A stretch of DNA of 64,000 bases from Clostridiales bacterium (GTDB lineage: Bacteria > Bacillota > DSM-16504 > Desulfitibacterales > JAICDB01): assembly GCA_020063565.1 (NCBI GenBank), contig JAICDB010000001.1, forward strand, positions 33,056 through 97,055, written 5' to 3'. Under the pieces are notes generated by a model, which did no database searches, was not told the origin of the DNA, and saw only the letters and a program-made list of their open reading frames with translations. The position numbers and the translations under genes were made by a program. Shown one piece after another: positions 36,359-55,030 of the stretch (positions are counted from its first letter, which is position 1; each line of letters opens with the position of its first letter).

Positions 36359-38368
36359 ATGATTAAAGTAAAAGAAGATGGTAAGCTGCTGGTTATTGAT
36401 TTTAATGGATTTGAAATTGTAAAACATTCAAATGAGATTCCTTTCCTGCACGTTGGAAGCGGTACTGCAAATTATGACATGCTTAATGGAAACTTTGAAA
36501 TTGAAGAACATTTAAATGAAAAAATTGCCTTAACCGATTACACTGTTTTGGAAGAAAAAGCTACTTCAGTTAAAGTGAAATTTTCAAGAAACGAAGTGTA
36601 CGCGGTAACTGTAAACTTTACAGAAGTTGATGGAAGGCTACATATTGATTTCCAAGAAAAACCGAAAGGCCTGAATAGAAGCTGGATAAAAATAGCTGCA
36701 CAGGAAAATGAACATATATACGGGTGCGGTGAACAGTTTTCTGAGCTTGACCTCAAGGGCAAAAAGGTTCCCTTATGGGTATCGGAGCAGGGGGTGGGCA
36801 GAAATAAAAAGGATTACCTGACCTTCCAGGCAGATGTACATGCCGGGGCAGGTGGTGACTGGTATACTACCTATTATCCCCAGCCTACTTTTGTGTCCTC
36901 TAAAAACTACTGGTGCCATGTAGAAGACTCCCACTATATGGAATTTGACTTTAGAAATGATTTGTACCATGAGCTATGTGTCTGGAGCATTCCTTCAAAG
37001 GTTATCATATCTAAAAAAAATACTGCCCTGGAAGTTCTTGAAGATTTAACAGCTTACCTGGGAAGGCAGCCTGAACTTCCTGACTGGTCCTATGATGGAG
37101 TATGGCTGGGATTACAGGGTGGTACGGAAACTGTACTTAAAAAACTTGAAAATGCTCAAAATCACGGCCTGAAGGTTGTTGCCTTATGGTGTCAAGACTG
37201 GGAAGGTAAGCGCATAACTGACTTTGGAAAACGACTTTTCTGGAATTGGGAATACCACAAAGAAATGTATCCGGATCTACCACAAACGATTAAAGAGCTC
37301 AATGAAAAGGGGATTAAGTTTTTAGGCTATATCAACACCTTCCTTGCTACTGATGGTGAAATGTATAAGGAAGCCACTAAAAAAGGTTATATAGTAAAAG
37401 ATAATGAAGGCAAAGATTATGAGGGAGCCAAGGATATGCCTGCTGTACTAATGGACTTTACTAATCCGGAAGCAGTTAATTGGATTAAAAATATAATTAA
37501 AGAAAATATGATAGGGATTGGTTTATCAGGCTGGATGTGTGATTTTGGGGAGTACCTGCCAACCGATGCTGTATTATACTCCGGTGAAAGTGCAGAAAGT
37601 TATCATAACAAGTATCCTGCAGAGTGGGCAAAGATAAATAGGGAAGCTGTCGAAGAAGCAGGCAAATTGGGCGAGGTAGTTTTCTTTACCAGGGCCGGTT
37701 ATACCGGTACTTCCAGATATTCACTTTTAATGTGGGCAGGTGACCAAACTGTTAACTGGAGTTTAGATGATGGTCTTGCCTCTGTAATACCTGCTGCTCT
37801 CTCCTTGGGAATGAGTGGCTTTGGAATATCCCATTCTGATATTGGTGGTTACACCTCACTTTACGGTGTAAAAAGGACCAAGGAACTGTTTATGAGATGG
37901 GCCGAAATGGCAGCATTCACACCTGTTATGAGAACCCATGAAGGAAACAGGCCTGATGACTGCTGGCAGTTTGACTCAGATGAAGAGACCTTATTACATT
38001 TTGCAAAGATGAGCAAAATCTATACCCATCTCAAGCCATACATTAAAGACGTAGTAAAAGAAAATGCGGAAAAGGGAATTCCCGCACAACGCCATCCGTA
38101 TATCCATTATGAAAATGATGAGGAACTTCACAAGTTGAAATACCAGTACCTCTTCGGCAGGGATTTGATGGTAGCCCCTGTTTATGAGGAAAATAAAACT
38201 AGCCGCAAGCTGTATCTGCCGGAAGATAATTGGATCCATGTTTGGACAGGAAAAGAATATGGTAAAGGGTATCATGAAGTTGAAGCTCCCTTAGGAGAAA
38301 TTCCCGTATTCTATAGGAAGGGCTCACAGTATGAAGACCTCTTTAAGCAAATTGCTGATATAAAGTAG
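36359..38368 (+). CDS. yihQ: GH31 sulfoquinovosidase (YihQ-type)
   Basis: The 669-aa ORF is colinear with my recollection of E. coli YihQ over the whole length: HIYGCGEQFS, PLWVSEQGVGRNK, LGRQPELPDW, QDWEGKRITDFGKRLFWNW (R-x-x-W sulfonate-pocket pair), GWMCDFGEYLPTD (nucleophile Asp), MWAGDQTVNWSLDDGLASV (acid/base Asp), HSDIGGYTS (pocket Tyr), THEGNRP. Confidence 0.8.
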   Translation: MIKVKEDGKLLVIDFNGFEIVKHSNEIPFLHVGSGTANYDMLNGNFEIEEHLNEKIALTDYTVLEEKATSVKVKFSRNEVYAVTVNFTEVDGRLHIDFQEKPKGLNRSWIKIAAQENEHIYGCGEQFSELDLKGKKVPLWVSEQGVGRNKKDYLTFQADVHAGAGGDWYTTYYPQPTFVSSKNYWCHVEDSHYMEFDFRNDLYHELCVWSIPSKVIISKKNTALEVLEDLTAYLGRQPELPDWSYDGVWLGLQGGTETVLKKLENAQNHGLKVVALWCQDWEGKRITDFGKRLFWNWEYHKEMYPDLPQTIKELNEKGIKFLGYINTFLATDGEMYKEATKKGYIVKDNEGKDYEGAKDMPAVLMDFTNPEAVNWIKNIIKENMIGIGLSGWMCDFGEYLPTDAVLYSGESAESYHNKYPAEWAKINREAVEEAGKLGEVVFFTRAGYTGTSRYSLLMWAGDQTVNWSLDDGLASVIPAALSLGMSGFGISHSDIGGYTSLYGVKRTKELFMRWAEMAAFTPVMRTHEGNRPDDCWQFDSDEETLLHFAKMSKIYTHLKPYIKDVVKENAEKGIPAQRHPYIHYENDEELHKLKYQYLFGRDLMVAPVYEENKTSRKLYLPEDNWIHVWTGKEYGKGYHEVEAPLGEIPVFYRKGSQYEDLFKQIADIK

Positions 38369-42029: not shown

Positions 42030-42184
42030 AACTTTACGCTCCCAACATAAAGATGTGATAATCTTAGTTTATAATAAAGTAGAAAGTTAAGCAAAAAAAA
42101 GAGAAATTATATTTACCAGGATAATTAAAAAAATGAGAACCTTAAAAAAAATTCAAATTGGAATTAAATGGTTGCAAAATTTTC

Positions 42185-42237
42185 TTGAAATATGTGTTCT
42201 TTACATTATAATAAAAGTAAAGTTTGTAATATTACAA
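42185..42237 (+). promoter_or_regulatory. gntR promoter with a perfect palindromic operator just downstream of the -10
   Basis: TTGAAA (42185-42190), 16-nt spacer, TATAAT (42207-42212), then the 14-bp perfect palindrome TTGTAATATTACAA (42224-42237), which fits the GntR-type GT..AC architecture. Confidence 0.65.
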
Positions 42238-42258
42238 AAAATTGGGGAGCGGGAGACC

Positions 42259-43035
42259 ATGCAAAATAGTATTCAGAATTTAGATGCTATGCCATTACAC
42301 TACCGTATTGCATATGAATTGAGAAATAAGCTCCAGAAGGGCTATTGGAAGCCCGGTGACCTGTTTCCTACTGATAAGCAGCTTATGGAACAGTATAATG
42401 TGAGCAGTACTACAGTGCGCAGAGCTATATACGAATTAGTACAGGAAGGATGGCTTGAAAGAAAGCCTGGTAAAGGAACATTTGTAAGAAATCAAATGGT
42501 GGAAAACCTTCGTAAGCTGACAGGTTTCTTTGAAGAAATTCAATCTAAAGGTATGGTTCCGAGTGCAGAAATTATCAAAAGTGAGATTGTAACGGTAGAT
42601 AATAATTTATTGCAGGAAATTCCTCTTTTGCAGGATTTCAATGTTTCTAAGGTATATTTAATTAAAAAAATTCATAAAATGAACAATACACCTGTTGTTT
42701 ATGTGAAAAGTTTTTGGCCTGTTGATATAGGAACTGAAATTGCAAAATATGATCTAACTAAGCAAGGTGTATATAGCATTGTTCAAGATGAATTGGGGAT
42801 TTTACTGAGAGAGGCGTCCCAGACAATTTCAGCCGGTTTAGCTGATAAAGAAGAAGCTGAGGCGTTAAATATAGCGGAAAAGGCTCCAATTTTAGTTATG
42901 AACAGGGCTACCTACAGCAATGAAAGGCTTTTAGAGGTTGCTGTAAACTCCTACAGGGCGGATTTATATAGTTATAAAATTATCTTAAGTCGTAATGATA
43001 TCAAAAAGAATGCAGGCATGGTATTAAATGCCTAA
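42259..43035 (+). CDS. GntR-family (HutC/UTRA subfamily) transcriptional regulator
   Basis: The ORF was trimmed to ATG 42259 (GGGGAGCGGGAG RBS), because the longer ORF would include its own promoter and operator. The wHTH is LFPTDKQLMEQYNVSSTTVRRAIYELVQEGWLERKPGKGTFV, followed by a UTRA-like C-terminal domain. Confidence 0.85.
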   Translation: MQNSIQNLDAMPLHYRIAYELRNKLQKGYWKPGDLFPTDKQLMEQYNVSSTTVRRAIYELVQEGWLERKPGKGTFVRNQMVENLRKLTGFFEEIQSKGMVPSAEIIKSEIVTVDNNLLQEIPLLQDFNVSKVYLIKKIHKMNNTPVVYVKSFWPVDIGTEIAKYDLTKQGVYSIVQDELGILLREASQTISAGLADKEEAEALNIAEKAPILVMNRATYSNERLLEVAVNSYRADLYSYKIILSRNDIKKNAGMVLNA

Positions 43036-43268: not shown

Positions 43269-43327
43269 ATGTACAAATTTACAACTTACAACTTTAATTA
43301 AAATTTTTCTGCATGAGGTGATTCACT

Positions 43328-44524
43328 TTGGTTAAAGCAATTGAAGGAAACCTTCTGGTAGGTCAATCAGGAGGGCCCACACCGGTAATTAATGCTAGTT
43401 TAGCGGGAGTTATCTCTGAAGCACAAAGACATAGTAACGTCAAAACTATCTATGGAATGGAGAATGGAATTGAAGGTTTGCTACAAGGCAAGCTTAAAAA
43501 GATTCCAGAAATGTCAGAAAAAAATATCCAATTGCTGGCATCCACACCTGCCTCTGCTTTGGGAAGCTGTAGATATAAGGTGCAGGATGACGATTACCCT
43601 AAGCTTTTGCAAATATTTAAAGAAAATAATATCAGGTACTTCTTTTACATTGGTGGAAACGACTCCATGGATACATGCAACAAAATAGCCAAGCTCGCAG
43701 AGGCTGAGGGCTATGAAATGTATGTTATGGGAGTGCCTAAAACAATTGATAATGACTTGCCTCTCACTGATCACTGCCCCGGATTTGGAAGTGCAGCTCG
43801 TTTTACTGCAGTTAGTACTCTAGGAACAGGTCGCGATCTTGAAGCAATGAAAACATTTGATGATGTAACCATTGTGGAAATTATGGGTCGCCATGCTGGC
43901 TGGCTGGCTGCTTCCTCAGCGCTTTTGAAAAGGGATGTCAAAGATGCGCCACACTTAATTTACTTACCTGAAAGAACCTTTAAAATGGATAAATTCATAG
44001 AAGATGTAAAGACAGTTCATAAGGAATTAGGATATGTATTTGTAGCAATAGGAGAAGGCATTAGAGATGAAAGTGGAGAGTTTATTGGAGCAAAGAATGC
44101 TGTAAAAGATGCCTTCGGACATATTGCAATAGCCCTTAGTGAAGGACCTGCAGCTTATCTGGCAAGGACAGTAAACAAAGAACTTGGCCTGCAAGCTCGC
44201 TACAATCGAAGTGGTACAATTCAGCGAGCTTATTCAGAATCTGTCTCTGATGCTGATAGAAATGAAGCATTTATGGTTGGACAAAAGGCAGTAGAGCTTG
44301 CAGTAAAAGGTGAAACAGGAAAGATGGTAACCCTGGTTAGGGGAGAGGGAACGGAGTATAAGTGTACAACAGGAACAGCTTCCCTTGAGAAGGTGGCTAA
44401 TGTTGAAAAAGTAGTTCCAGACGAATTTATTAACGCTGAAGGCAATTTTGTAACTGAAGCATTTAAGGAATACGCATTGCCACTACTTGGAAGTAATTTG
44501 CCGGAGTATTATAGATTTAAGTAA
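43328..44524 (+). CDS. PfkA-family sugar-phosphate/sulfosugar 1-kinase with PPi-type signature residues
   Basis: 398-aa ORF with TTG start 8 nt after GAGGTG. PFK motifs are SGGPTPVINA, IGGNDS (E. coli IGGDGS), GVPKTIDND (E. coli GLPGTIDND) and EIMGRHAGW. Confidence 0.75.
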   Translation: MVKAIEGNLLVGQSGGPTPVINASLAGVISEAQRHSNVKTIYGMENGIEGLLQGKLKKIPEMSEKNIQLLASTPASALGSCRYKVQDDDYPKLLQIFKENNIRYFFYIGGNDSMDTCNKIAKLAEAEGYEMYVMGVPKTIDNDLPLTDHCPGFGSAARFTAVSTLGTGRDLEAMKTFDDVTIVEIMGRHAGWLAASSALLKRDVKDAPHLIYLPERTFKMDKFIEDVKTVHKELGYVFVAIGEGIRDESGEFIGAKNAVKDAFGHIAIALSEGPAAYLARTVNKELGLQARYNRSGTIQRAYSESVSDADRNEAFMVGQKAVELAVKGETGKMVTLVRGEGTEYKCTTGTASLEKVANVEKVVPDEFINAEGNFVTEAFKEYALPLLGSNLPEYYRFK

Positions 44525-44560: not shown

Positions 44561-45412
44561 ATGAGTTTAGTGACATTAAAAGAAGTAATGGAGCCAAAAG
44601 ACGAAGCATTTGCTGTTGGAGCATTTAGTACTTATGACTTAAGCAGCGCTCTGGGCATAGTAGAAGGAGCTGAAGCAGTTAACCTGCCTGTTATTGCAAT
44701 GATGGGTGCACCGGTTCTTAATGTACCTGGTAATGAGAAAGTTGCTGAAACATTGATTTCATTAGCTAAAATGTCAAGTGTACCTGTTGTTGTGCATTTG
44801 GACCATGCCAAAGATTTTGCAACTTGCATGAAAGCTATTAAGTTAGGATTCAGTTCGGTTATGATTGATGGTTCGACATTAAGTCTGGAAGAAAATATTG
44901 CAGTTACCAATAAAGTAACTGAGGCTGCAAAAGCAGTAGGTGTTTCAGTAGAAGCAGAACTGGGAGCGCTTGCCGGAATTGAAGACGGAGAAGAGGTTAA
45001 GGCTCAAAAAATGACAAATCCCGAGCACATGAAAACATTTTTAGAAGCAACGGATGTTGACGGGTTAGCTGTTTCAATCGGTAATGCCCATGGATTGTAC
45101 AAGGGTGAACCTAACCTGAACTTTGAATTACTTGAAAAGCTGAACGACTTAAGTGATGTTCCCCTCATAATGCATGGTGGAACCGGTCTTACTCAAGAAC
45201 AGTTTGCCAAGGGAATTCAACTGGGAATTAAAAAGATCAATATTGGAACTGAGATCAAAAAGACAACAATTGAAACCTTTATAGAAACACACGGCAAAAA
45301 TGAAAGCGCCTGGGATATGATTGGTATTCCGAAGGCGTGCAGGGAAGCTATTTCTAAAGTTGTTGCTGACAAATTGAAATTTTATAGAAGCGGTTGGAAG
45401 GAACTGGTTTAG
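44561..45412 (+). CDS. Class II (metal-dependent) ketose-bisphosphate aldolase, FbaA/GatY/KbaY family
   Basis: 283-aa ORF with VVHLDHAKD, EAELG, IGNAHG and MHGGTG, which are characteristic of class II FBP/tagatose-bisphosphate aldolases. Confidence 0.8.
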   Translation: MSLVTLKEVMEPKDEAFAVGAFSTYDLSSALGIVEGAEAVNLPVIAMMGAPVLNVPGNEKVAETLISLAKMSSVPVVVHLDHAKDFATCMKAIKLGFSSVMIDGSTLSLEENIAVTNKVTEAAKAVGVSVEAELGALAGIEDGEEVKAQKMTNPEHMKTFLEATDVDGLAVSIGNAHGLYKGEPNLNFELLEKLNDLSDVPLIMHGGTGLTQEQFAKGIQLGIKKINIGTEIKKTTIETFIETHGKNESAWDMIGIPKACREAISKVVADKLKFYRSGWKELV

Positions 45413-45463
45413 TTGGTTGTTGACCAGTAATTGGTTGTGCCAAGCATGAAAGGGAGTGTAAAT

Positions 45464-46570
45464 ATGGCAGAAGTTAAGCTTCAGGGGATATACAAGAGGT
45501 TTAAGGATACAGTTGCAGTATCAAACTTTAACCTGGAAATCAAAGACGGTGAATTCATAGTTCTGGTAGGACCTTCCGGATGTGGGAAAAGTACAACCCT
45601 GAGAATGGTTGCCGGTTTGGAACAACCTTCAGAAGGTAAAATTTATATTGGTGATAAGGACGTAACCTATGCTGAACCCAAAAACAGAGATATAGCAATG
45701 GTATTTCAGGATTATGCGCTATATCCTCATATGAACGTATTTAAGAATATGGCATTTGGATTGCAGTTAAGAAAAATGCCCAAGGACGAAATAAAGAAGA
45801 GGGTGGAGACTGCAGCAGAACGCTTGGGAATTTCACATCTGTTGCATAGAACTCCGAGACAGCTATCAGGTGGTCAGCGTCAGAGGGTAGCTTTGGGAAG
45901 ATCGATTGTAAGGGATCCCCAGGTATTCTTGATGGACGAGCCGCTTTCTAACCTTGACGCTAAATTAAGGGTGCAAATGAGGGCTGAAATAGTTAAGCTC
46001 CAGAAAGGTTTAAATACAACTACTATCTATGTAACTCATGATCAGGTAGAAGCCATGACAATGGGTGATAGGATAGTTGTAATGAAGGATGGCTTTATGC
46101 AGCAAGTAGGTACTCCTTCAGAGATTTATCATGAACCTGCCAACATGTTTGTAGCTGGCTTTGTAGGTTCTCCTAGCATGAACTTTATTGAGGGAGAATT
46201 TGTTCAAAAGGACGGTAAATGCTTCTTTACAGCTCAAGGTATCGAAGTAGAATTACCCGGAAAGCTTTCCGACAAATCATTGTCTTCTAAGTCAGTAGTG
46301 CTTGGCATTCGTCCTGAGGATATTAGGGTAGATGTGGAAAAAACAGACAACTTAACATCTCCTGTGGAATGTAAAGTTGAATTAATTGAAGATCTAGGCG
46401 CCGAAGAAATTGTCTTTCTAAAAACAAAGGGTGGCCAAGAATTTAAAGCACGTATTTCAAGCGACCTTAGTAAAGCTCAAGCTGGTAATAATGTAAATGC
46501 ATATTTCAAGCTTAATAAGATTCATATCTTTGATGCTGAAGAAGGCAGTAAGGTACCCCTTTCTGCTTAA
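45464..46570 (+). CDS. Sugar ABC importer ATPase (MsmX/UgpC/MalK type)
   Basis: The ORF was trimmed to MAEVKLQGIYKRF after an AAAGGGAG RBS. It has Walker [10 protein letters not shown], signature LSGGQRQR, Walker B FLMDEPLSNLD and a C-terminal regulatory (TOBE-like) domain. Confidence 0.9.
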   Translation: MAEVKLQGIYKRFKDTVAVSNFNLEIKDGEFIVLVGPSGCGKSTTLRMVAGLEQPSEGKIYIGDKDVTYAEPKNRDIAMVFQDYALYPHMNVFKNMAFGLQLRKMPKDEIKKRVETAAERLGISHLLHRTPRQLSGGQRQRVALGRSIVRDPQVFLMDEPLSNLDAKLRVQMRAEIVKLQKGLNTTTIYVTHDQVEAMTMGDRIVVMKDGFMQQVGTPSEIYHEPANMFVAGFVGSPSMNFIEGEFVQKDGKCFFTAQGIEVELPGKLSDKSLSSKSVVLGIRPEDIRVDVEKTDNLTSPVECKVELIEDLGAEEIVFLKTKGGQEFKARISSDLSKAQAGNNVNAYFKLNKIHIFDAEEGSKVPLSA

Positions 46571-46696
46571 AAATCTTTAGACTTCATAAAGGGGGTGGGG
46601 TAAAGAGTAAAAGATAACAAGTCAGTCTTAATAAAATTCTAGGAATGTAAATTACGGGACGATTTAATCTATTTAATTTATGGGAGGGTGAACAAT

Positions 46697-47962
46697 TTGA
46701 ACTTCAAGAAGCTGAGTGTGTTGGCAATTGTAGTATTGTTGGTTGGTGCATTTGTTGTAGGTTGTGGTGGAGGAAATGATGAACCTGCAGATCAAGGCGC
46801 AGATTCCGGTGAAAAACAAGTAACAATTAGATTTGCTCACTGGCGTGGAGAAGATAAGGAAGCATTTGAAAAAGTAATTGCTAAGTTCAATGAAGAATAT
46901 CCAAACATCAAAGTTCAGCAGGATATTAGTGGCTCAGAGCAGTACAGAGCAAAAATACAAGCAGAATTGCAATCAGATGCCGGACCTGACGTTTTCACTA
47001 CTTTCCCCGGTGCACATTTTGCTACTTTACAGGAAGCAGGAGTATATGCCGATCTTTCAGGCGCTGAATTCCTGGATCGTTTCTCCCCTCACCTGTTACT
47101 GGCAGGACAGGCTGATGGAAAACAATATGCAGTTCCATACCAGCTGGTATTCAATATCCCCGTATACAATAAAGGGTTATTTGAAAAAGCAGGTGTAGAG
47201 CCTGCAGACAGTTGGGAAGGATTCTTGGAAATGTGTCAGACTTTAAAGGATAACGGTATTACACCTATCATCTTTGACAGTGAAATTGGCCCCGGCCAAT
47301 TTATGAACCCAATGTTAATGAACAATATGCCTACCGATGATGCCTTAACCAGGGTAGAAAAAGGCGAGCTTAAGTTGACAGATGACTGGTTCGTTAAAAC
47401 TCTTGCTCAATTTAAAGAACTTAAGGACAAAGGATTTATGCAGGATGACGTACTTGGAACCAGAAAAGCTGGCGCTGCTGCGTTATTTGCTCAGGAACAA
47501 GGCGCCATGTTAGCTCAAGGGTCATATATGATGGCATCTAACAAACAGCAAAACCCCGATATCAAGCAGGGACTACTTGCACCAATAACAGTACCGGCAG
47601 ATCAAGCAAAGTATGAAGGTATCCATACTTCAACATTTATGATTGGTATTAATGCAAAATCCGAAAAACAAGAAGCTGCTAAGAAGTTTATGGAATTCTT
47701 GTTTAGACCGGAAATTTCCGCAATGTATGCTAATGTAACAGGACAAATGTTGACAGTTAATGGTGTTGAATATGAATCGCCTGAATTAAATGAACAGGCT
47801 AAGTGGCTAGAGAAGAAGACATTATTCCAGCCTAGATACACTTTGACAGTTCAAGAAGTTGAGGATGCAATAGTAAACTCAATTAAAGACGTATTAGGTG
47901 GTATGTCGCCTGAAGAAGCTGCTGCTAAGGCTCAGGAAGAAGTTGAAAGATCTATTAAATAA
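46697..47962 (+). CDS. Extracellular solute-binding lipoprotein (carbohydrate family 1)
   Basis: TTG 46697 lies 9 nt after GGGAGG. The lipoprotein signal has the lipobox FVVGC, and the body is a typical sugar SBP. Confidence 0.85.
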   Translation: MNFKKLSVLAIVVLLVGAFVVGCGGGNDEPADQGADSGEKQVTIRFAHWRGEDKEAFEKVIAKFNEEYPNIKVQQDISGSEQYRAKIQAELQSDAGPDVFTTFPGAHFATLQEAGVYADLSGAEFLDRFSPHLLLAGQADGKQYAVPYQLVFNIPVYNKGLFEKAGVEPADSWEGFLEMCQTLKDNGITPIIFDSEIGPGQFMNPMLMNNMPTDDALTRVEKGELKLTDDWFVKTLAQFKELKDKGFMQDDVLGTRKAGAAALFAQEQGAMLAQGSYMMASNKQQNPDIKQGLLAPITVPADQAKYEGIHTSTFMIGINAKSEKQEAAKKFMEFLFRPEISAMYANVTGQMLTVNGVEYESPELNEQAKWLEKKTLFQPRYTLTVQEVEDAIVNSIKDVLGGMSPEEAAAKAQEEVERSIK

Positions 47963-48040
47963 GGTTTAGAGGGATACTTTCAGCGACAAGAGAGAGGGCA
48001 TGTACCTCTCTCTTATCCTGATAACTAAGGAGGAAAAAAT

Positions 48041-48919
48041 ATGAAAAAGTACTGGGGGCTCTTACCATTTATCATACCAGGGGTCATATTATATACAATC
48101 TTTTTTGCCATACCCTTAGTTTCCTCACTGGCTCTTAGTTTTACAGACTGGAACGGTATATCCCCTGATTATAATTTTGTTGGCTTAAGCAATTATGTTG
48201 AGATGATTACAGATGACCCTATTTTCCATCAAACATTTGGTAACAACCTAAAATACATGTTTTTTGTAGTTATCTTCCAGACATTATTTGCACTTATTTT
48301 TGCCATGTTTTTGGCTAAAAACAGTAAACTCAATGTTTTCTACAGGGCGCTATTCTTTTTCCCCACTGTTATCGCTTCAGTTTCGGTGGCTTTTATCTGG
48401 ATCTTTGTTTATGATCCAAGCATCGGTTCATTAAATACAATCCTTAAATTATTTGGCCTGGACTTTTTGAAACAGTCCTGGTTGGGGGACAAAAACATTG
48501 CAATTTACAGCCTTGCTATAACACAGGTTTGGATGCATACTGGACAGGTGATGATAATCTTTATAGCAGGTTTACAATCTATACCAAAATCACTGTATGA
48601 GGTTGCCAGAATAGAAGGAGCATCAAGGTGGCAGACCTTCCGTAATGTAACATGGCCGCTTTTAGCTCCTGCTGCAACAATTGTTGTAGCATATACCACA
48701 TTGCAGTCATTCAAGGCATTTGACCTCATTCTGGCAATGACCGATGGTGGACCATCCTATGCAACTGAAATATTATCACTCTTTATTTACCACGAAGCAT
48801 TTAGAAACTTCAAATTTGGCTATGCTGCAGCATCAGCGGTGATCTTCTTAATTATCGTATCATTGATTACAATAATTCAATTTAGAATTTTAAATGCCAA
48901 TAAGGTAACCTACAATTAA
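48041..48919 (+). CDS. Sugar ABC permease (UgpA/MalF type)
   Basis: 292-aa ORF with six TM helices and the EAA-loop sequence EVARIEGASRWQTFRNVTWPLL. Confidence 0.9.
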   Translation: MKKYWGLLPFIIPGVILYTIFFAIPLVSSLALSFTDWNGISPDYNFVGLSNYVEMITDDPIFHQTFGNNLKYMFFVVIFQTLFALIFAMFLAKNSKLNVFYRALFFFPTVIASVSVAFIWIFVYDPSIGSLNTILKLFGLDFLKQSWLGDKNIAIYSLAITQVWMHTGQVMIIFIAGLQSIPKSLYEVARIEGASRWQTFRNVTWPLLAPAATIVVAYTTLQSFKAFDLILAMTDGGPSYATEILSLFIYHEAFRNFKFGYAAASAVIFLIIVSLITIIQFRILNANKVTYN

Positions 48920-48933
48920 GGGGTGTATATCAA

Positions 48934-49806
48934 GTGAGTAATTCAAAATTAGATTTACAAAAAGCAGACAAAAAACCAAAAGAAAATATTACGAAGGTTG
49001 ATATTTGGAGACAGTTTCCTCTCCTCATTTATGCAATAATTATCATTACACCTCTTTCACTGGTATTTTTTGCAACTTTTAAAAACCTTAAGCAGCTATA
49101 TTCAGATCCTTTGGGGGTACCTGAAAGTTGGAGCCTTGCCAACTATAAAGCGCTCTTTGCAAATGAGAATATGTTGATATACTTTAAAAACAGTGTAATA
49201 GTAACGTGTATTTCTGTTTTCAGTATTCTTTTACTTGCAAGTATGATTGCCTATGCAATAGTAAGATTACCGAAGTGGATAGGAAATATAGTCTTTGGGT
49301 TTGTAGTAGTGGGAATGATGGTACCTACTCAGGTGAATATGATACCACAGTATCTTTTACTGGATAGACTTAATCTATTGGATAAGCATCTGGGGTTAAT
49401 CTGCGTAACGGTGGCTACATTTTTACCTATTGCAGTATTTATTTTAACAGGATTTATGAAAACTTTGCCGAAAGGTTTAATTGAAGCCGCAAGCATCGAT
49501 GGCGCCTCACACTGGCAAATTTACTCAAGGGTGATGTTGCCTTTATCCGGTCCGTCTCTTGCTACGACAGCTATTTTCTGCTTTGTTATTGTCTGGAACG
49601 ATCTTCTTTATCCGCTGTTGTTCATAAAGTCGGACAGCTTAAAGACAATGCCCCTGGCGCTGCTAGAATTCCAGGGTCAGTATTTGACAAACTACCCAAT
49701 GATTTTCTCGGGAGTAGTGGTAGCTTCTATTCCGATGATTATAATTTATGTTTTCCTTCAGCGCTACTTTATTGCCGGTATGACAGCAGGATCTATGAAA
49801 GGATAA
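48934..49806 (+). CDS. Sugar ABC permease (UgpE/MalG type)
   Basis: 290-aa ORF with the EAA-loop sequence EAASIDGASHWQIYSRVMLPL. Confidence 0.9.
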   Translation: MSNSKLDLQKADKKPKENITKVDIWRQFPLLIYAIIIITPLSLVFFATFKNLKQLYSDPLGVPESWSLANYKALFANENMLIYFKNSVIVTCISVFSILLLASMIAYAIVRLPKWIGNIVFGFVVVGMMVPTQVNMIPQYLLLDRLNLLDKHLGLICVTVATFLPIAVFILTGFMKTLPKGLIEAASIDGASHWQIYSRVMLPLSGPSLATTAIFCFVIVWNDLLYPLLFIKSDSLKTMPLALLEFQGQYLTNYPMIFSGVVVASIPMIIIYVFLQRYFIAGMTAGSMKG

Positions 49807-49932
49807 GTAGAAGTATATTTATATTATGTAAGATTAATGTAATGTCCGGGAACTGTGGAGGGTTTCACTGTTTCTGGAGCTGTGTTAAATGCAAAGTTTG
49901 TAATAATACAAGATTTCTTAGGAGGGCAGTTT

Positions 49933-51273
49933 ATGGAAACCTTAAAACCTGTATACCTGCCAATGGGTAGAACTACATTCCATATGGAAAGTGCCACTGA
50001 TTACTACAACCGTTCCTGTAAAGTAATCAAAGAACTTGCCCCGGGGGCAGAAATGCCGCAAGAATTACTTACTGATTTAGATATGTTAAACAACTATCTT
50101 GATGAAATCAAAAATAAGGATATAGATATTGCAGTTGTTCAAAGTACTACCTTTGTAGATGCTACCTTTACAATAGAAATCGTCAGAAAGCTTTCCTGTC
50201 CCGTATTAGTATGGTGTGTGCGAGAACCCGTTATTGATGGTAGTCGCCTCAGATTAAACTCTCTAACCGGTGGTTTTGCTGCCGGCAATACTTTAAGTAC
50301 CTTTGGCAGAACATTTGATTTTGTATTCGGTAATCCCGAAGAGGAACAAGTGCAGAAAAAATTATCTGCATACTTCAAAGCTGCATCTGTTGTAAAGGGA
50401 TTGAAGAACTTGACTTTAGGGGTAGTAGGAAATGTACCTCCGGGCTTTTTCTTTGGAGAAGAACTCAGTATGAATCTCTTAAATGTCATAGGTGCAAAAT
50501 TGGAACGCTTAGACCTTAACAGTCTGATTCAAGAGGCGAAAGAATTGAAAACCGGTGAGTATGAAGAGGCACTTGCAGAATTGAAGGAGAAAATCTTCGG
50601 CATTGAAGAAATTGAAGAGGAACAAGTAGATAAAAACGCTCGCTTTAGAACAGTTCTTAAAAAACATGTGGAAGAAAAAGGAATTAAGGCAATTGCTAGT
50701 CGTTGCTGGCCTACAGTATTCCAGGAGTATAATGCTGCAATTTGTGCCACCCTTTCTTTATTTACTGAAGAAGGAATTGTATCTTCCTGTGAAGCTGATA
50801 TTGGCGGCGCAATCAGCATGTATATCCAGAAACAAATTACAGGAGAACCTCCATATTTCGGAGACCCTGTTTCATTAGATGAAGAAAAGAATTCTATTAT
50901 TTACTGGCATTGTGGTGCAGGAGCTTGTTCACTTGCTAGAACCGATACAGGCGCCCGCGCAGGAAGACATCCTAACCGTAAGCTTGGGCTGTCATTGGAA
51001 TTTGGTCTTAAGGACGGCAGGGTTACAGTTTGCCGCTTCGGTAAGGGGCCAAACGGTTACCGTCTTTTTATCATGGCTGGTGAAGCGCTGGATGAACCTC
51101 AAAAGTTTCTTGGAACATCTGTTGAAGTACGCCCTGACGGAAATGCAGCTGAAATTGTAAATTCAGCAATTAATGAAGGTTGGGAACCTCACTTTTCAGT
51201 GGTTTACGGAGATATAACCGAGGAGTTAAAGGCTGTAGCCAAACTATTAAACATTGAAGTTGTAGAGTATTAA
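49933..51273 (+). CDS. L-fucose/L-arabinose isomerase-family aldose-ketose isomerase (short form)
   Basis: The ORF was trimmed to METLKPVYLP after an AGGAGGG RBS. The family resemblance (SSCEADIGGA, YWHCGAG, GWEPHFSVVYGD) is recalled by eye and not verified. Confidence 0.6.
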   Translation: METLKPVYLPMGRTTFHMESATDYYNRSCKVIKELAPGAEMPQELLTDLDMLNNYLDEIKNKDIDIAVVQSTTFVDATFTIEIVRKLSCPVLVWCVREPVIDGSRLRLNSLTGGFAAGNTLSTFGRTFDFVFGNPEEEQVQKKLSAYFKAASVVKGLKNLTLGVVGNVPPGFFFGEELSMNLLNVIGAKLERLDLNSLIQEAKELKTGEYEEALAELKEKIFGIEEIEEEQVDKNARFRTVLKKHVEEKGIKAIASRCWPTVFQEYNAAICATLSLFTEEGIVSSCEADIGGAISMYIQKQITGEPPYFGDPVSLDEEKNSIIYWHCGAGACSLARTDTGARAGRHPNRKLGLSLEFGLKDGRVTVCRFGKGPNGYRLFIMAGEALDEPQKFLGTSVEVRPDGNAAEIVNSAINEGWEPHFSVVYGDITEELKAVAKLLNIEVVEY

Positions 51274-51288
51274 GAGAGGGGACCTGTG

Positions 51289-52401
51289 ATGCTTGCCGCC
51301 GATTTGCAAAAGGAGATAGCAGTAAAAGAAGAACGAGTGAACAAGCTAATAAAAGAAAAAGGTTTAGACGGTATTTGCCTTTTTAAGGCTGCTAACTTTC
51401 ACTGGTTTACAGCCGGTGGAACCAACAGGGTTGTGACAGGTTCTGAAAAGGGATGTGCCGTAATATTAATTATGGAAGGTAAGAAGTATTTAATTTCACC
51501 TTCCAATGAAATCGACAGGCTCCTTGCAGAACAACTCCCCGATCAAGGTTTTGAGAGATGTACTTTCTACTGGTATGAAACTCCCATGAAAGTAATCAAA
51601 GAACTAGCCGGAGATAAGAGGCTAGGTAGTGATATAGCAGTTCCGGGAATGACTGAGATCGGAGTTGATATAGACAGGTTGCGCTTTTCCCTGACATCGC
51701 AGGAAGTGGAAAAGGCAAGAAAAATTGCGGAAATCTCCTCTCGTGAAACAGCAGCATTATGTGCTAGTCTCAAACCAGGCATGACCGAATATGAGATAAC
51801 GGCTTTACTTTCTGAAACACTTTTAAGAGAAGGGATAAATCCTGCAGTACTACTTGTTGGTACTGATGAGAGGGTGTTTACCTGCAGGCACCCGGTACCT
51901 GTAGAAAAGAAACTTCAAAAGTATGCACTCATCAGTCTGGTAGGGGAAAAGTGGGGATTGCACGTTACACTGACTCGTGCAGTATATTTTGGCAGCCTGC
52001 CGGAAGATTTGAAGAAAAAACAGGAACTTGTCAATCGGGTGGATGCCACATTTATAGCAAATACCATTGCAGGAAAGATGAGTGATGATGTATTTAATGC
52101 AGGTAAAGAAGAATATGCTTGTGTTGGCTATCCTGATGAATGGAAAATGCATCACCAGGGTGGAGCCATAGGATATGCTCCCCGTGAATATCGTGGCGGG
52201 GAAGGCAGAAATGAAAAAGTTATAGTAAATCAAATGTTTGGGTGGAACCCAACACTGCAGGGAACAAAAAGTGAAGATACAATTTTAGTTAATGCTAAAG
52301 GAATTCCAACTATAATAACGAATGTACCCGGGTGGTGGCCTACCCAGGAAATTAACGTAAATGATTCAATTATAAATCGTCCCATGATTTTAGAAATATA
52401 G
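51289..52401 (+). CDS. M24 (creatinase/prolidase, pita-bread fold)-like protein lacking most metal ligands
   Basis: 370-aa ORF with a creatinase/prolidase-type N-domain and a pita-bread C-domain. By-eye alignment to PepP/prolidase motifs shows D->L, D->T, H->G and E->N at four of the five metal-ligand positions. Confidence 0.6.
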   Translation: MLAADLQKEIAVKEERVNKLIKEKGLDGICLFKAANFHWFTAGGTNRVVTGSEKGCAVILIMEGKKYLISPSNEIDRLLAEQLPDQGFERCTFYWYETPMKVIKELAGDKRLGSDIAVPGMTEIGVDIDRLRFSLTSQEVEKARKIAEISSRETAALCASLKPGMTEYEITALLSETLLREGINPAVLLVGTDERVFTCRHPVPVEKKLQKYALISLVGEKWGLHVTLTRAVYFGSLPEDLKKKQELVNRVDATFIANTIAGKMSDDVFNAGKEEYACVGYPDEWKMHHQGGAIGYAPREYRGGEGRNEKVIVNQMFGWNPTLQGTKSEDTILVNAKGIPTIITNVPGWWPTQEINVNDSIINRPMILEI

Positions 52402-52752: not shown

Positions 52753-53235
52753 ATGTCCAGAAAAGTATTGACAGTTGAAAAAAGCAAGTGTATTGGTTGC
52801 AGAATTTGTGAACAGTGGTGTAGCTTGACCCATCACGGTGTAATAAACCCTGCCAAAGCAAGGGTAAAGGTAACTCGAATTGAAGAATCCGGTGTTGATG
52901 TGCCTGTTATTTGTACCCAGTGCAGCAAGGCTGCATGTATAGCAGCATGTCCTGAAGGCGCTTTATCCAAAAATTCTAAAACAGGTGCAATAAAGGTAGA
53001 TAAGGAAAAATGTACTGCGTGCAGAAAATGTGTAACTGCTTGCCCTAATGCTGCAATATCAGTCCACCCGGAAGATGAGTATGTTTTAATCTGTGATTTG
53101 TGTAACGGCAAGCCCAAATGTGTGGAAAACTGTCCTGAAAAAGCTCTGCAGTATCTCCCCATTGAAACCAGTGAACGAATTTATAGAAGCAAAGTAGTCA
53201 GGGATACTGCAAAAGGGGGTAAGCGCTGTGGCTAA
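52753..53235 (+). CDS. 4x[4Fe-4S]-type polyferredoxin (AOR electron-transfer subunit)
   Basis: 160-aa ORF with four Cys clusters (CIGCRICEQWC, CTQCSKAACIAACP, CTACRKCVTACP, CDLCNGKPKCVENCP). It overlaps the AOR start. Confidence 0.85.
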   Translation: MSRKVLTVEKSKCIGCRICEQWCSLTHHGVINPAKARVKVTRIEESGVDVPVICTQCSKAACIAACPEGALSKNSKTGAIKVDKEKCTACRKCVTACPNAAISVHPEDEYVLICDLCNGKPKCVENCPEKALQYLPIETSERIYRSKVVRDTAKGGKRCG

Positions 53236-55030
53236 TCTAGGAGCAGTCAACGGAAAACTTTTAAGGGTTAACCTAACAACTGGTAACGCTATAGTAGAGG
53301 ATATACCTCAAGAAATATATACAAAATATTTTGGCGGCAGGGGTGCCGGGACCAGGTATCTCTTCGATGAAGTGCCTACAGATACTGATCCTTTAAGTGA
53401 AAATAACAAGCTGATATTTTTAAACGGCCCTATGGCCGGTACCATGGCTCCCGGAAGCAACAAAATAGCAGTGACTTTTAAATCCCCTGCTACAAACGGT
53501 ATTGCTTCATCACTATGTGGTGGTCATTTTGGTCCTGAGTTGAAGTTTGCAGGTTATGATGCTTTGATAATTGAAGGAAAATCTGAAAAGCCTGTTTACC
53601 TCTGGATTCAAAATGATGAAGTTCAAATTAAAGATGCTTCTTCATACTGGGGCAAAAATATTCCTGAAACAGGAGAAGGAATTAAGAAGGAACTTGGTGG
53701 AGACGAAAACATTCATGTAGCTTGTATCGGCCCGGCAGGAGAAAACTTAAATGTAATAGCCTGCATTACAGCCGAAAGACACAGGGAATTTGGACGCCCC
53801 GGTGCCGGAGCTGTTATGGGTTCTAAGAACTTAAAAGCAATAGCTATCAAGGGAACTCAAGATGTTAAGCCTGCTAAAGCAGGAAAAATGGCTAATTATG
53901 TTAAGGAACTGTATAAAGAGTTTGCAAACAATCCCAAGGCAAACGCCAGAAGAAACTATGGAACAGTTGAAATGGTAGACGGTATCAATAAGCTCGGATT
54001 TTGGTCCACAAGAAACTTCAGCCAGGGGCAGTTTGAAGGTGCCGACAAATTAACAGGTCCAATGATGAGGCAGGAGATAGTTGTAGAAGACACTTCCTGT
54101 TATGCATGTCCTATTGCCTGCGGTAAAGTTTCCTGTGTAGAATCCGAAAAATACGGTACAGTTCATATCGAAGGGCCTGAATTTGAGACATTGGGGCTTT
54201 TAGGGCCAAACTGCGGCATAGGTGATTGGGAATATATCCTGAAAGCCGCAGAAGTATGTGACTATAACGGTATGGATACGATTTCTGCCGGGGCAACAGT
54301 ATCCATGGCTATGGAATGCTATGAAAAAGGAATAATTACAAAAGAAGATACCGGTGGTATAGAATTAAAATTCGGAAACGGTGAAGCATTGATTGCAATC
54401 CTGGAGAAAATGGCAAAAAGAGAAGGAATCGGCGATATTTTGGCTCAAGGGTTAAAGGTAGCTGCAGAGAAGTTTGGTGCGCCTGAACTGGCAATGCACA
54501 GCAAGGGAGTTTCGCCTGCAACCTATGACCCAAGAGGCAGCAAGGGGATGGCAGTAACCTATGCCACTTCACCTAAGGGTGCCCATCATATGATATCACC
54601 GACTATGGGGGCAGAAATTGCAGGTGACCGTTTTGCAGAAACAGGAAAGGCAGCTATGATCAAGGATACCCAGATCCAAATGGCGCTTGTCGATTCACTT
54701 GGTTACTGTTCAAGTATGAGATTTGTAATGCAGGTCGACCATCAGCTTGAACTCTTCAAGCTTTCCACAGGTTTGGAAATGACTAAGGAAGACTTTTATA
54801 CTGTGGGAGAACGGGTGCTCAACCTTGAAAGGCAGTATAACGTAAACTGCGGCATGACCAGAAAAGACGACAGCCTCCCCAAGAGATTCCTCAAGGAAGC
54901 AATGGAGGACGGTCCTAGCAAAGGACAAACAATAAACCTGGATTTAATGCTCGATGAGTTTTATGCGGAAATGGGCTGGGATAAAGACGGTAAACCAACA
55001 GAAGAAAAATTGGCAAGCCTTGGATTATAA
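53228..55030 (+). CDS. Tungsten-type aldehyde:ferredoxin oxidoreductase (AOR family)
   Basis: 600-aa ORF with the AOR N-terminal domain (GKLLRVNLTTG...YFGGRGAG), the cluster-binding context CYACPIACGK, and full-length resemblance to the AOR family. Confidence 0.85.
   Translation: MANLGAVNGKLLRVNLTTGNAIVEDIPQEIYTKYFGGRGAGTRYLFDEVPTDTDPLSENNKLIFLNGPMAGTMAPGSNKIAVTFKSPATNGIASSLCGGHFGPELKFAGYDALIIEGKSEKPVYLWIQNDEVQIKDASSYWGKNIPETGEGIKKELGGDENIHVACIGPAGENLNVIACITAERHREFGRPGAGAVMGSKNLKAIAIKGTQDVKPAKAGKMANYVKELYKEFANNPKANARRNYGTVEMVDGINKLGFWSTRNFSQGQFEGADKLTGPMMRQEIVVEDTSCYACPIACGKVSCVESEKYGTVHIEGPEFETLGLLGPNCGIGDWEYILKAAEVCDYNGMDTISAGATVSMAMECYEKGIITKEDTGGIELKFGNGEALIAILEKMAKREGIGDILAQGLKVAAEKFGAPELAMHSKGVSPATYDPRGSKGMAVTYATSPKGAHHMISPTMGAEIAGDRFAETGKAAMIKDTQIQMALVDSLGYCSSMRFVMQVDHQLELFKLSTGLEMTKEDFYTVGERVLNLERQYNVNCGMTRKDDSLPKRFLKEAMEDGPSKGQTINLDLMLDEFYAEMGWDKDGKPTEEKLASLGL

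Follow-up and report, generated by a model that had tools for sequence, protein, structure and literature searches.

A phosphofructokinase (PFK)-family kinase is encoded in the stretch of DNA analyzed here, 64,000 nucleotides from a Clostridiales bacterium (assembly GCA_020063565.1, contig JAICDB010000001.1, positions 33,056 to 97,055; hereafter the window), and we propose, with a rough probability of 0.58, that it would act as a pyrophosphate (PPi)-dependent sulfofructose 1-kinase that arose by recruitment from the PPi-PFK lineage, separately from the SqiK-type kinases, which have Gly at position 104. SqiK is the sulfofructose kinase of the sulfo-EMP2 (sulfoglycolytic Embden-Meyerhof-Parnas) pathway of Bacillus urumqiensis (Liu et al. 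2021 ACS Catal., cited here through PMC9594981 and PMC10665668). As far as gene content tells, the operon that carries the window kinase is a sulfo-EMP2-type operon for the use of sulfoquinovose, a sulfo-sugar of plants. From the sequences presented below, we infer which phosphoryl donor and which sugar the enzyme would use and what positions 162 and 246 would do.

Phosphoryl-Donor Residues of the Kinase

Residue equivalences were taken from an alignment of the kinase with E. coli K-12 PfkA (NC_000913.3), and the position numbers used for comparisons are those of PfkA. The window protein, whose sequence includes FYIGGNDSMDTC and MGVPKTIDNDLP, matched PF00365 with 196 bits, and its residues 9-324 covered profile positions 2-276/277, which is the full catalytic domain. 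The catalytic set was kept (D127 as Asp141, R72 as Arg82, M169/R171 as Met186/Arg188, and E222 as Glu243), and so were the sugar-site residues R243 (Arg291) and R252 (Arg300), with T125 likewise conserved; since both the catalytic and the sugar-binding residues are intact, the kinase looks active.

Three positions have been tabulated in relation to the phosphoryl donor. Position 104 is Gly in ATP-dependent PFKs and Asp in PPi-dependent PFKs, where the Asp fills the alpha-phosphate site of ATP and determines the register of PPi; position 124 is usually Gly in the former and Lys in the latter; and at position 108, Gly in all solved ATP-PFKs contrasts with Asn, Thr, or Ser in PPi-PFKs (2025 review, PMC12203962). 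Among the solved structures in Table S3 of this review, all ATP-dependent PFKs have Gly at both 104 and 108. In the window kinase, all three positions were in the PPi state: G104 corresponds to Asp112 (codon 43661-43663), G124 to Lys138 (codon 43739-43741), and G108 to Thr116 (codon 43673-43675), the last being larger than Gly and located at the position of N181 in the B. burgdorferi enzyme. Lys124 alone is not diagnostic of PPi, because the ATP-dependent PFK of T. brucei also has Lys at this position (PMC12203962).

The preliminary description of this gene had set IGGNDS and GVPKTIDND of the window protein against IGGDGS and GLPGTIDND of E. coli PfkA, and these motifs were borne out by the alignment, in which PfkA has VIGGDGSYMGA and IGLPGTIDNDI. 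It had also regarded the Asn at the D103 position as a further deviation, a view that we abandoned. The first Asp of the GGDD motif, a Mg2+ ligand at this position, is indeed absent from the window kinase, which has Asn111 instead (codon 43658-43660), but Asn (as GGNDS) was found in every Bacillota subfamily member examined, including the Caldicellulosiruptor PFK; it is thus the subfamily norm, and the first Asp of GGDD does not define this branch.

The kinase exceeded the cut-off of 273 for the NCBIfam model NF010675 (PRK14072, "diphosphate--fructose-6-phosphate 1-phosphotransferase") with 494.8 bits. We rejected this product name as evidence for PPi, because NCBI applies the same name to Gly104 kinases of Bacilli. 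NCBI in fact names the Gly104 kinases of sulfoquinovose clusters as the diphosphate-dependent enzyme and many Asp104 kinases as "6-phosphofructokinase", as it does for the two copies in Moorella, which exposes an annotation problem in that product names are at odds with the donor motif at position 104.

Phylogenetic Placement

Two trees were built with Shimodaira-Hasegawa-like approximate likelihood-ratio (SH-aLRT) supports: one of 131 rows (IQ-TREE, LG+G4), rooted on housekeeping PfkA, and one of 63 rows under the posterior mean site frequency (PMSF) approach. In the 131-row tree, all Asp104 sequences fell in one clade (support 95), and the Gly104 kinases of Bacilli, Moorella, and Desulforamulus ruminis were placed outside it. 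This clade was composed of ordinary PPi-PFK-like proteins (41 rows) and a group with Asp162 and Arg246 (51 rows, support 97), and the latter was in turn composed of the sulfoquinovose-context clade of the window kinase (27 rows) and a clade that we labeled "DRRLGR". In the 63-row tree, the sulfoquinovose-context clade had a support of 98, the Asp104 rows had a support of 97 together with the long branch L138 and of 74 alone, and at least two changes at position 104 were required. The phylogeny, which the preliminary description had suggested building, therefore placed the kinase inside the Asp104 group and beside ordinary PPi-PFKs of Bacillota, including that of Caldicellulosiruptor.

Asp104 was present in all members of the sulfoquinovose clade but one, which speaks against a chance motif. 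The exception, P0076, which was also the sole Gly104 row inside the Asp104 clade of the 131-row tree, is a metagenome protein with the motif GGNGSMGIC (Gly104 and Ile108), encoded on a 16.8-kb contig that also carries an SqvD homologue (P0128); it may represent a natural reversal of donor type.

The Sulfoquinovose Operon and Its Counterparts in Other Genomes

Sulfo-EMP2 as published combines SqvD with a PF00365 kinase and a PF01116 aldolase (PMC9594981, PMC10665668), and all three were found in the operon of the window (table 1). For the isomerase, the database gene call gives a protein of 446 aa, i.e., a start at 49933. The window aldolase scored about equally against models of tagatose- and fructose-bisphosphate aldolases. 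Among its top matches were the sulfofructose-phosphate aldolases 8Q58 and 8Q57 of the Protein Data Bank (PDB; 173-175 bits), and ordinary class II fructose-bisphosphate aldolases scored about the same; the identification of SqiA by likeness to solved structures was therefore given up as nondiscriminating. In genome G072, the kinase is neighbored by a homologue of the GH31 protein (67% identity), and homologues were also observed in loci of Bacilli.

Table 1. Features of the kinase gene, its protein, and the surrounding operon (positions in the window)
Feature	Position	Strand	Basis or remark
GH31 putative YihQ-like sulfoquinovosidase, ~5 kb upstream	36359..38368	+	context marker only
GntR/HutC-family regulator, upstream of kinase	42133..43035	+	PF00392 and PF07702; beside kinase in related loci
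Shine-Dalgarno sequence AGGTGA, 6 nt 5' of the kinase TTG	43316..43321	+	read from sequence
PFK-family kinase open reading frame, 398 aa, TTG start	43328..44524	+	predicted PPi-dependent sulfofructose 1-kinase
Donor-specificity block N111-D112-S-M-D-T116 (E. coli D103-G104...G108)	43658..43675	+	PfkA alignment and PMC12203962 Table S3
K138-T-I-D141 of PKTIDND (Lys at G124 position, Asp141 at D127)	43739..43750	+	PfkA alignment
Asp178-Asp179 (Q161/R162 positions)	43859..43864	+	PfkA alignment
Loop R291-Y-N-R294-S-G-T297-I-Q-R300 (R243...V246...H249...R252)	44198..44227	+	PfkA alignment
Class II ketose-bisphosphate aldolase (SqiA-like), directly downstream of kinase	44561..45412	+	PF01116, 272 bits
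Sugar ABC importer: ATPase, substrate-binding protein, two permeases	45431..49806	+	profile matches
SqvD/SftI-type sulfoquinovose isomerase	49855..51273	+	NF048012, 536 bits, below equivalog cut-off of 700
M24/creatinase-fold protein	51286-52401		weak Pfam scores only
Polyferredoxin-like Fe-S protein and aldehyde:ferredoxin oxidoreductase (AOR), operon end	52753-55030		

Two of the additional operon genes recur elsewhere. The M24-like gene accompanies SqvD in nearly all related loci, those of Bacilli included (31-61% identity), and AOR homologues (64-68% identity) adjoin the kinase or lie close to it in G133, G051, and L007.

Starting from an alignment of SqvD homologues, we scanned the best 80 named genome loci for a PFK-family kinase within 10 kb and observed one in 15, of which 6 belong to Peptococcales/Clostridia metagenome-assembled genomes (MAGs) and 9 to aerobic Bacilli. 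The kinases of the former (L004-L009) were 60-65% identical to that of the window, all had GGNDS and PKTIDND, and all six adjoined the aldolase gene. The loci of Bacilli (Fictibacillus, B. taeanensis, Lederbergia, Thalassobacillus, and two MAGs) encoded kinases 35-38% identical to that of the window, with GGNGT (GGDGT in one) and PKTVDND, i.e., Gly104; there the kinase gene directly follows SqvD, GntR and SqiA come next in that order where the contig reaches, and YihQ was present in two loci. We take these SqvD-adjacent Gly104 kinases, as relatives, to represent the SqiK type. Neither the best 80 SqvD loci nor the best 120 homologues of one Bacilli kinase included the B. urumqiensis SqiK itself; only a Halalkalibacter relative (P0283) was found there.

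A kinase homologue was present in 87 of 401 sampled genomes of the phylum. In G133, G051, and G072, homologues with 63-69% identity sat among sulfoquinovose genes, in combinations of AOR, GntR, SqvD, YihQ, SqiA, M24-like, EamA, and substrate-binding protein genes. Thus, every homologue with at least 60% identity, from these three genomes and from L004-L009, was accompanied by combinations of SqiA, SqvD, GntR, YihQ, M24-like, and AOR genes, whereas 17 homologues with 47-52% identity had no such sulfoquinovose gene within 10 kb on either side. One ordinary GGNDS relative belongs, by exact look-up, to a cluster of Caldicellulosiruptor PFKs that includes ABP67944.1 of C. saccharolyticus (GGNDSMDTA and PKTIDND), which is probably the PPi-PFK of that species reportedly assayed by Bielen et al. 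2010. The published cloning primer for the C. thermocellum PPi-PFK was matched by none of the 401 sampled genomes.

Both kinase types were observed in Moorella species, which have a GGNDS paralogue standing alone, without sulfoquinovose context, and a GGNGT paralogue. GGNGT kinases were identified in Moorella sp. Hama-1 (L145:9390-10562), Neomoorella humiferrea (L146:9339-10487), and D. ruminis (Desru_3861; L147:9396-10520), each with an SqvD-like isomerase within ~8 kb. The cluster of D. ruminis has a clear SqvD homologue (45%) and an aldolase; the kinase of both Moorella genomes adjoins GntR and a class II aldolase, and the SqvD homologue is distant (32-33%). A rule by which anaerobes have Asp104 and aerobes Gly104 was accordingly rejected.

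Housekeeping PfkA and Pyrophosphate Enzymes of the Host

The host genome is a 2.36-Mb MAG with a completeness of 81%. It encodes exactly one other PFK, a 323-aa PfkA with GGDGS and GVPATIDND, which has Ala and not Gly at position 124, and the genes for an ROK glucokinase, this PfkA, and phosphoglucose isomerase form one tight cluster (L001:10-3280, host contig C1). The presence of a separate ATP-type PfkA in a glycolytic cluster suggests that the operon kinase is an extra, dedicated enzyme. One or two canonical PfkA genes were likewise present in each of G133, G051, and G072. The only gene of the transaldolase family (TAL_FSA) found in the 81%-complete host MAG lies on another contig; because the operon has none, no fructose 6-phosphate (F6P) would be made within this pathway.

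The host encodes a membrane H+-pyrophosphatase (949 bits) and a pyruvate phosphate dikinase (1426 bits), and no soluble pyrophosphatase of family I or II (PF00719, PF02833) was found in the 81%-complete MAG. C. saccharolyticus is reported to possess a PPi-PFK besides an ATP-PFK, together with an H+-pyrophosphatase and a pyruvate phosphate dikinase, and no cytosolic pyrophosphatase (PMC3003633). Taken together, the donor triad, the grouping with Asp104 proteins, the contrast with the Gly104 kinases, and the PPi enzymes of the genome lend support, at the level of sequence, to the earlier suggestion that the first phosphorylation of the pathway may be driven by PPi.

The Sugar-Phosphate Pocket

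In PfkA, Arg162 forms an inter-subunit salt bridge to the 6-phosphate of F6P; in the T state, Glu161 takes the place of Arg162, and the affinity for F6P is lowered by the negative side chain at that site (PMC12203962). A comparison of the 6-phosphate-binding arginines of PfkA, also suggested in the preliminary description, gave a divided answer: R243 and R252 are kept in the window kinase, but the cationic ligand at position 162 is absent and is replaced by Asp179, which is preceded by Asp178. In the 243-252 loop, the window kinase has gained an Arg at position 246 and has Thr at 249. The combination of Asp162 and Arg246 was observed in nearly the whole sulfoquinovose clade, with Asn at 162 in two metagenomic members, and it is shared by the DRRLGR sister clade. 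At 162, Lys, Arg, Asn, or Thr prevails among the ordinary members, whose residue 246 is variable. Class II sulfofructose-phosphate aldolases likewise lack the inter-subunit Arg of the 6-phosphate pocket, which is a parallel and not a proof.

Kinases of the DRRLGR clade, 56% identical to that of the window, with Asp104, Asp162, Arg246, and Leu249/Gly251, were found on three metagenome contigs (L156:1593-8854, L157:65-4058, and L158:135-2631). In L156 and L157, the kinase gene lies between a ComA-family (phosphosulfolactate synthase) gene and a gene for an aldolase-fold protein of the Cgl0159-like Pfam family, which in L158 is located downstream of the kinase; in L156, GH4, LarA-like, and Ldh_2 genes follow. 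From their gene content, these contigs look like a different sulfonate-linked locus of the EMP style.

Proposed Reaction and Alternative Explanations

In the pathway that we propose, YihQ would release sulfoquinovose, and SqvD would isomerize it to 6-deoxy-6-sulfofructose. The kinase would then transfer a phosphoryl group from PPi, and not from ATP, to O1, and the resulting sulfofructose-1-phosphate would be split by the adjoining class II aldolase into dihydroxyacetone phosphate (DHAP) and sulfolactaldehyde. Within the kinase, Asp112 would fill the ATP alpha-phosphate pocket and set the register of PPi, Lys138 would pair with a PPi phosphate, Thr116 would block the adenine site, and Asp141 (D127) would serve as the general base. 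The replacement of Arg162 by Asp179, together with the new Arg294, may adapt the distal pocket to a monoanionic sulfonate in place of a dianionic phosphate.

A wider claim, in which we place slightly less than even confidence, is that the whole Asp162/Arg246 clade, i.e., the Peptococcales/Clostridia kinases and the ComA-linked metagenome group, would consist of PPi-type enzymes switched from a phosphosugar to a sulfosugar. The window kinase would then be the first PPi-dependent sulfosugar kinase, and it would belong to a PPi-economized anaerobic sulfoglycolysis independent of SqiK. No description of a PPi-dependent sulfosugar kinase was found in the searched literature.

The alternative that survives best, although we consider it unlikely, is that the enzyme is a sulfofructose kinase that uses ATP or another nucleotide, as SqiK would, and that its Asp/Lys/Thr signature was simply inherited from a PPi-PFK ancestor. 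Reviews describe the sulfofructose kinase of sulfo-EMP as ATP-dependent, Lys124 is shared with an ATP-dependent enzyme as noted above, PFK-A enzymes that use ADP exist, and P0076 shows that Gly104 occurs in the clade. Set against these points, Asp104 physically occupies the ATP alpha-phosphate site (PMC12203962), the solved ATP-PFKs have Gly at positions 104 and 108 and the window kinase has Gly at neither, and Asp104 is otherwise fixed in the clade.

Somewhat less probable still is an ordinary PPi-dependent F6P kinase, possibly also acting on sedoheptulose 7-phosphate (S7P), that is co-regulated with the sulfoquinovose genes and serves hexose phosphate metabolism or a reversible gluconeogenesis from DHAP. 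Such an enzyme would agree with the NF010675 match above the cut-off, with the apparently ordinary PPi-PFK nature of the relatives at 46-52% identity, and with the substrate range of the C. thermocellum-type PPi-PFKs, which take F6P and S7P in a reversible reaction. It fits poorly with an operon that lacks a transaldolase and would supply no F6P, with the pairing of kinase and aldolase in six of six loci and the confinement of the sulfoquinovose context to the clade, with Asp in the place of the 6-phosphate ligand Arg162, and with the presence of a housekeeping PfkA.

A PPi- or ATP-dependent kinase for another sugar of the operon (another 6-sulfo-ketose, tagatose-6-phosphate, or a product of a catalytically altered M24-like protein) would accommodate the near-equal aldolase scores, the SqvD match of 536 below 700, and the unusual extra operon genes, but we consider it improbable given that YihQ-like and SqvD homologues co-occur with the kinase across lineages and that SqvD, the PF00365 kinase, and the PF01116 aldolase are exactly the sulfo-EMP2 set.

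Several points weigh against the proposal of a PPi-dependent sulfofructose kinase. Donor motifs are correlates and not proof, and the existence of ADP-using PFK-A enzymes applies here as well. The link from Gly104 through SqiK to ATP is drawn from relatives, and it is reviews that place SqiK in an ATP-dependent scheme (PMC9594981, PMC10665668). Because P0076 is a member of the sulfoquinovose clade with Gly104, the donor may be labile, and the Gly104 kinases in SqvD-like clusters of anaerobes mean that there is no clean split between anaerobes and aerobes. The root of the tree rests on a single long outgroup branch, so only the unrooted split was relied on. With regard to the substrate, it is odd that Asp should serve as the ligand of an anionic sulfonate, Asp162 also occurs in an ordinary homologue without sulfoquinovose context (L092), and position 162 is Ile in the Caldicellulosiruptor enzyme. 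At a MAG completeness of 81%, the lack of a soluble pyrophosphatase is not established.

Implications for Anaerobic Sulfoglycolysis

Since the kinase has the full set of PPi-type sequence marks, the pathway probably saves one ATP per sugar. The conversion of DHAP to pyruvate yields 2 ATP; if the proposal is true, no ATP would be spent on priming, and the C3 half would give 2 ATP per sulfoquinovose at the substrate level where it otherwise gives 1, a gain that would hold if PPi is free from biosynthesis or cheap via the H+-pyrophosphatase. For fermenting or sulfite-respiring anaerobes, only half of the sulfoquinovose carbon is usable and the ATP yield is therefore marginal, and the proposed economy could be part of the reason why anaerobes of the subsurface and the gut can live on sulfoquinovose. 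The PPi-PFK family would also gain a new class of substrates, and the Asp104 and Gly104 kinases in the same pathway would offer a natural pair for the study of donor switching.

Comparison with Known Systems

The ordinary Bacillota PPi-PFKs of the NF010675/PRK14072 type, such as that of C. saccharolyticus, are 46-52% identical to the window kinase, have the same GGNDSMDT and PKTIDND motifs, fall in the same clade of the tree, and belong to the same length class (~400-415 aa) with a C-terminal extension. Unlike the window kinase, they are encoded by stand-alone genes, and no sulfoquinovose gene lies within 10 kb of these; their substrates are F6P and S7P, and besides the residues already mentioned for position 162 they have no conserved Arg246. 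PPi-PFKs of the Clo1313_1876 type from C. thermocellum accept F6P and S7P (PMC7029132) and are likened here to the window kinase by kind and not by a comparison of motifs.

The closest solved relatives were 3HNO (Nitrosospira multiformis) and 3K2Q (Marinobacter aquaeolei), which matched over the full length with 300 and 293 bits, respectively. Both are titled "pyrophosphate-dependent phosphofructokinase" and have a D/K/T donor triad identical to that of the window kinase, but they differ in having GGGDS and not GGNDS, Lys at 162, and KYHWGVADYLQR as the 243-252 loop. Both are apo structures from structural genomics, for which the review table lists no publication (PMC12203962).

YihV of the E. 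coli sulfo-EMP pathway shares the predicted reaction and the pathway position of the window kinase, but it has the unrelated PfkB/ribokinase fold (PF00294) and is ATP-dependent (PMC9594981, PMC10665668).

SqiK and the window kinase belong to the same family, PF00365, match the same NCBIfam subfamily, share the predicted product sulfofructose-1-phosphate, and keep the same gene company (SqvD, the class II aldolase SqiA, YihQ, and GntR). The SqiK-type gene set, a PF00365 kinase with SqvD, SqiA, and YihQ, was found in the window, and its arrangement was kept in L004-L009, G133, G051, and G072. Orthology with the Bacillus-type SqiK was not observed, as judged from the SqvD-adjacent kinases of Bacilli: these have 35-40% identity, lie outside the Asp104 clade, and have GGNGT, Gln162, Met249, and no Arg246. 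This divergence suggests that the window enzyme was probably a separate recruitment to the same pathway with a different phosphoryl donor.

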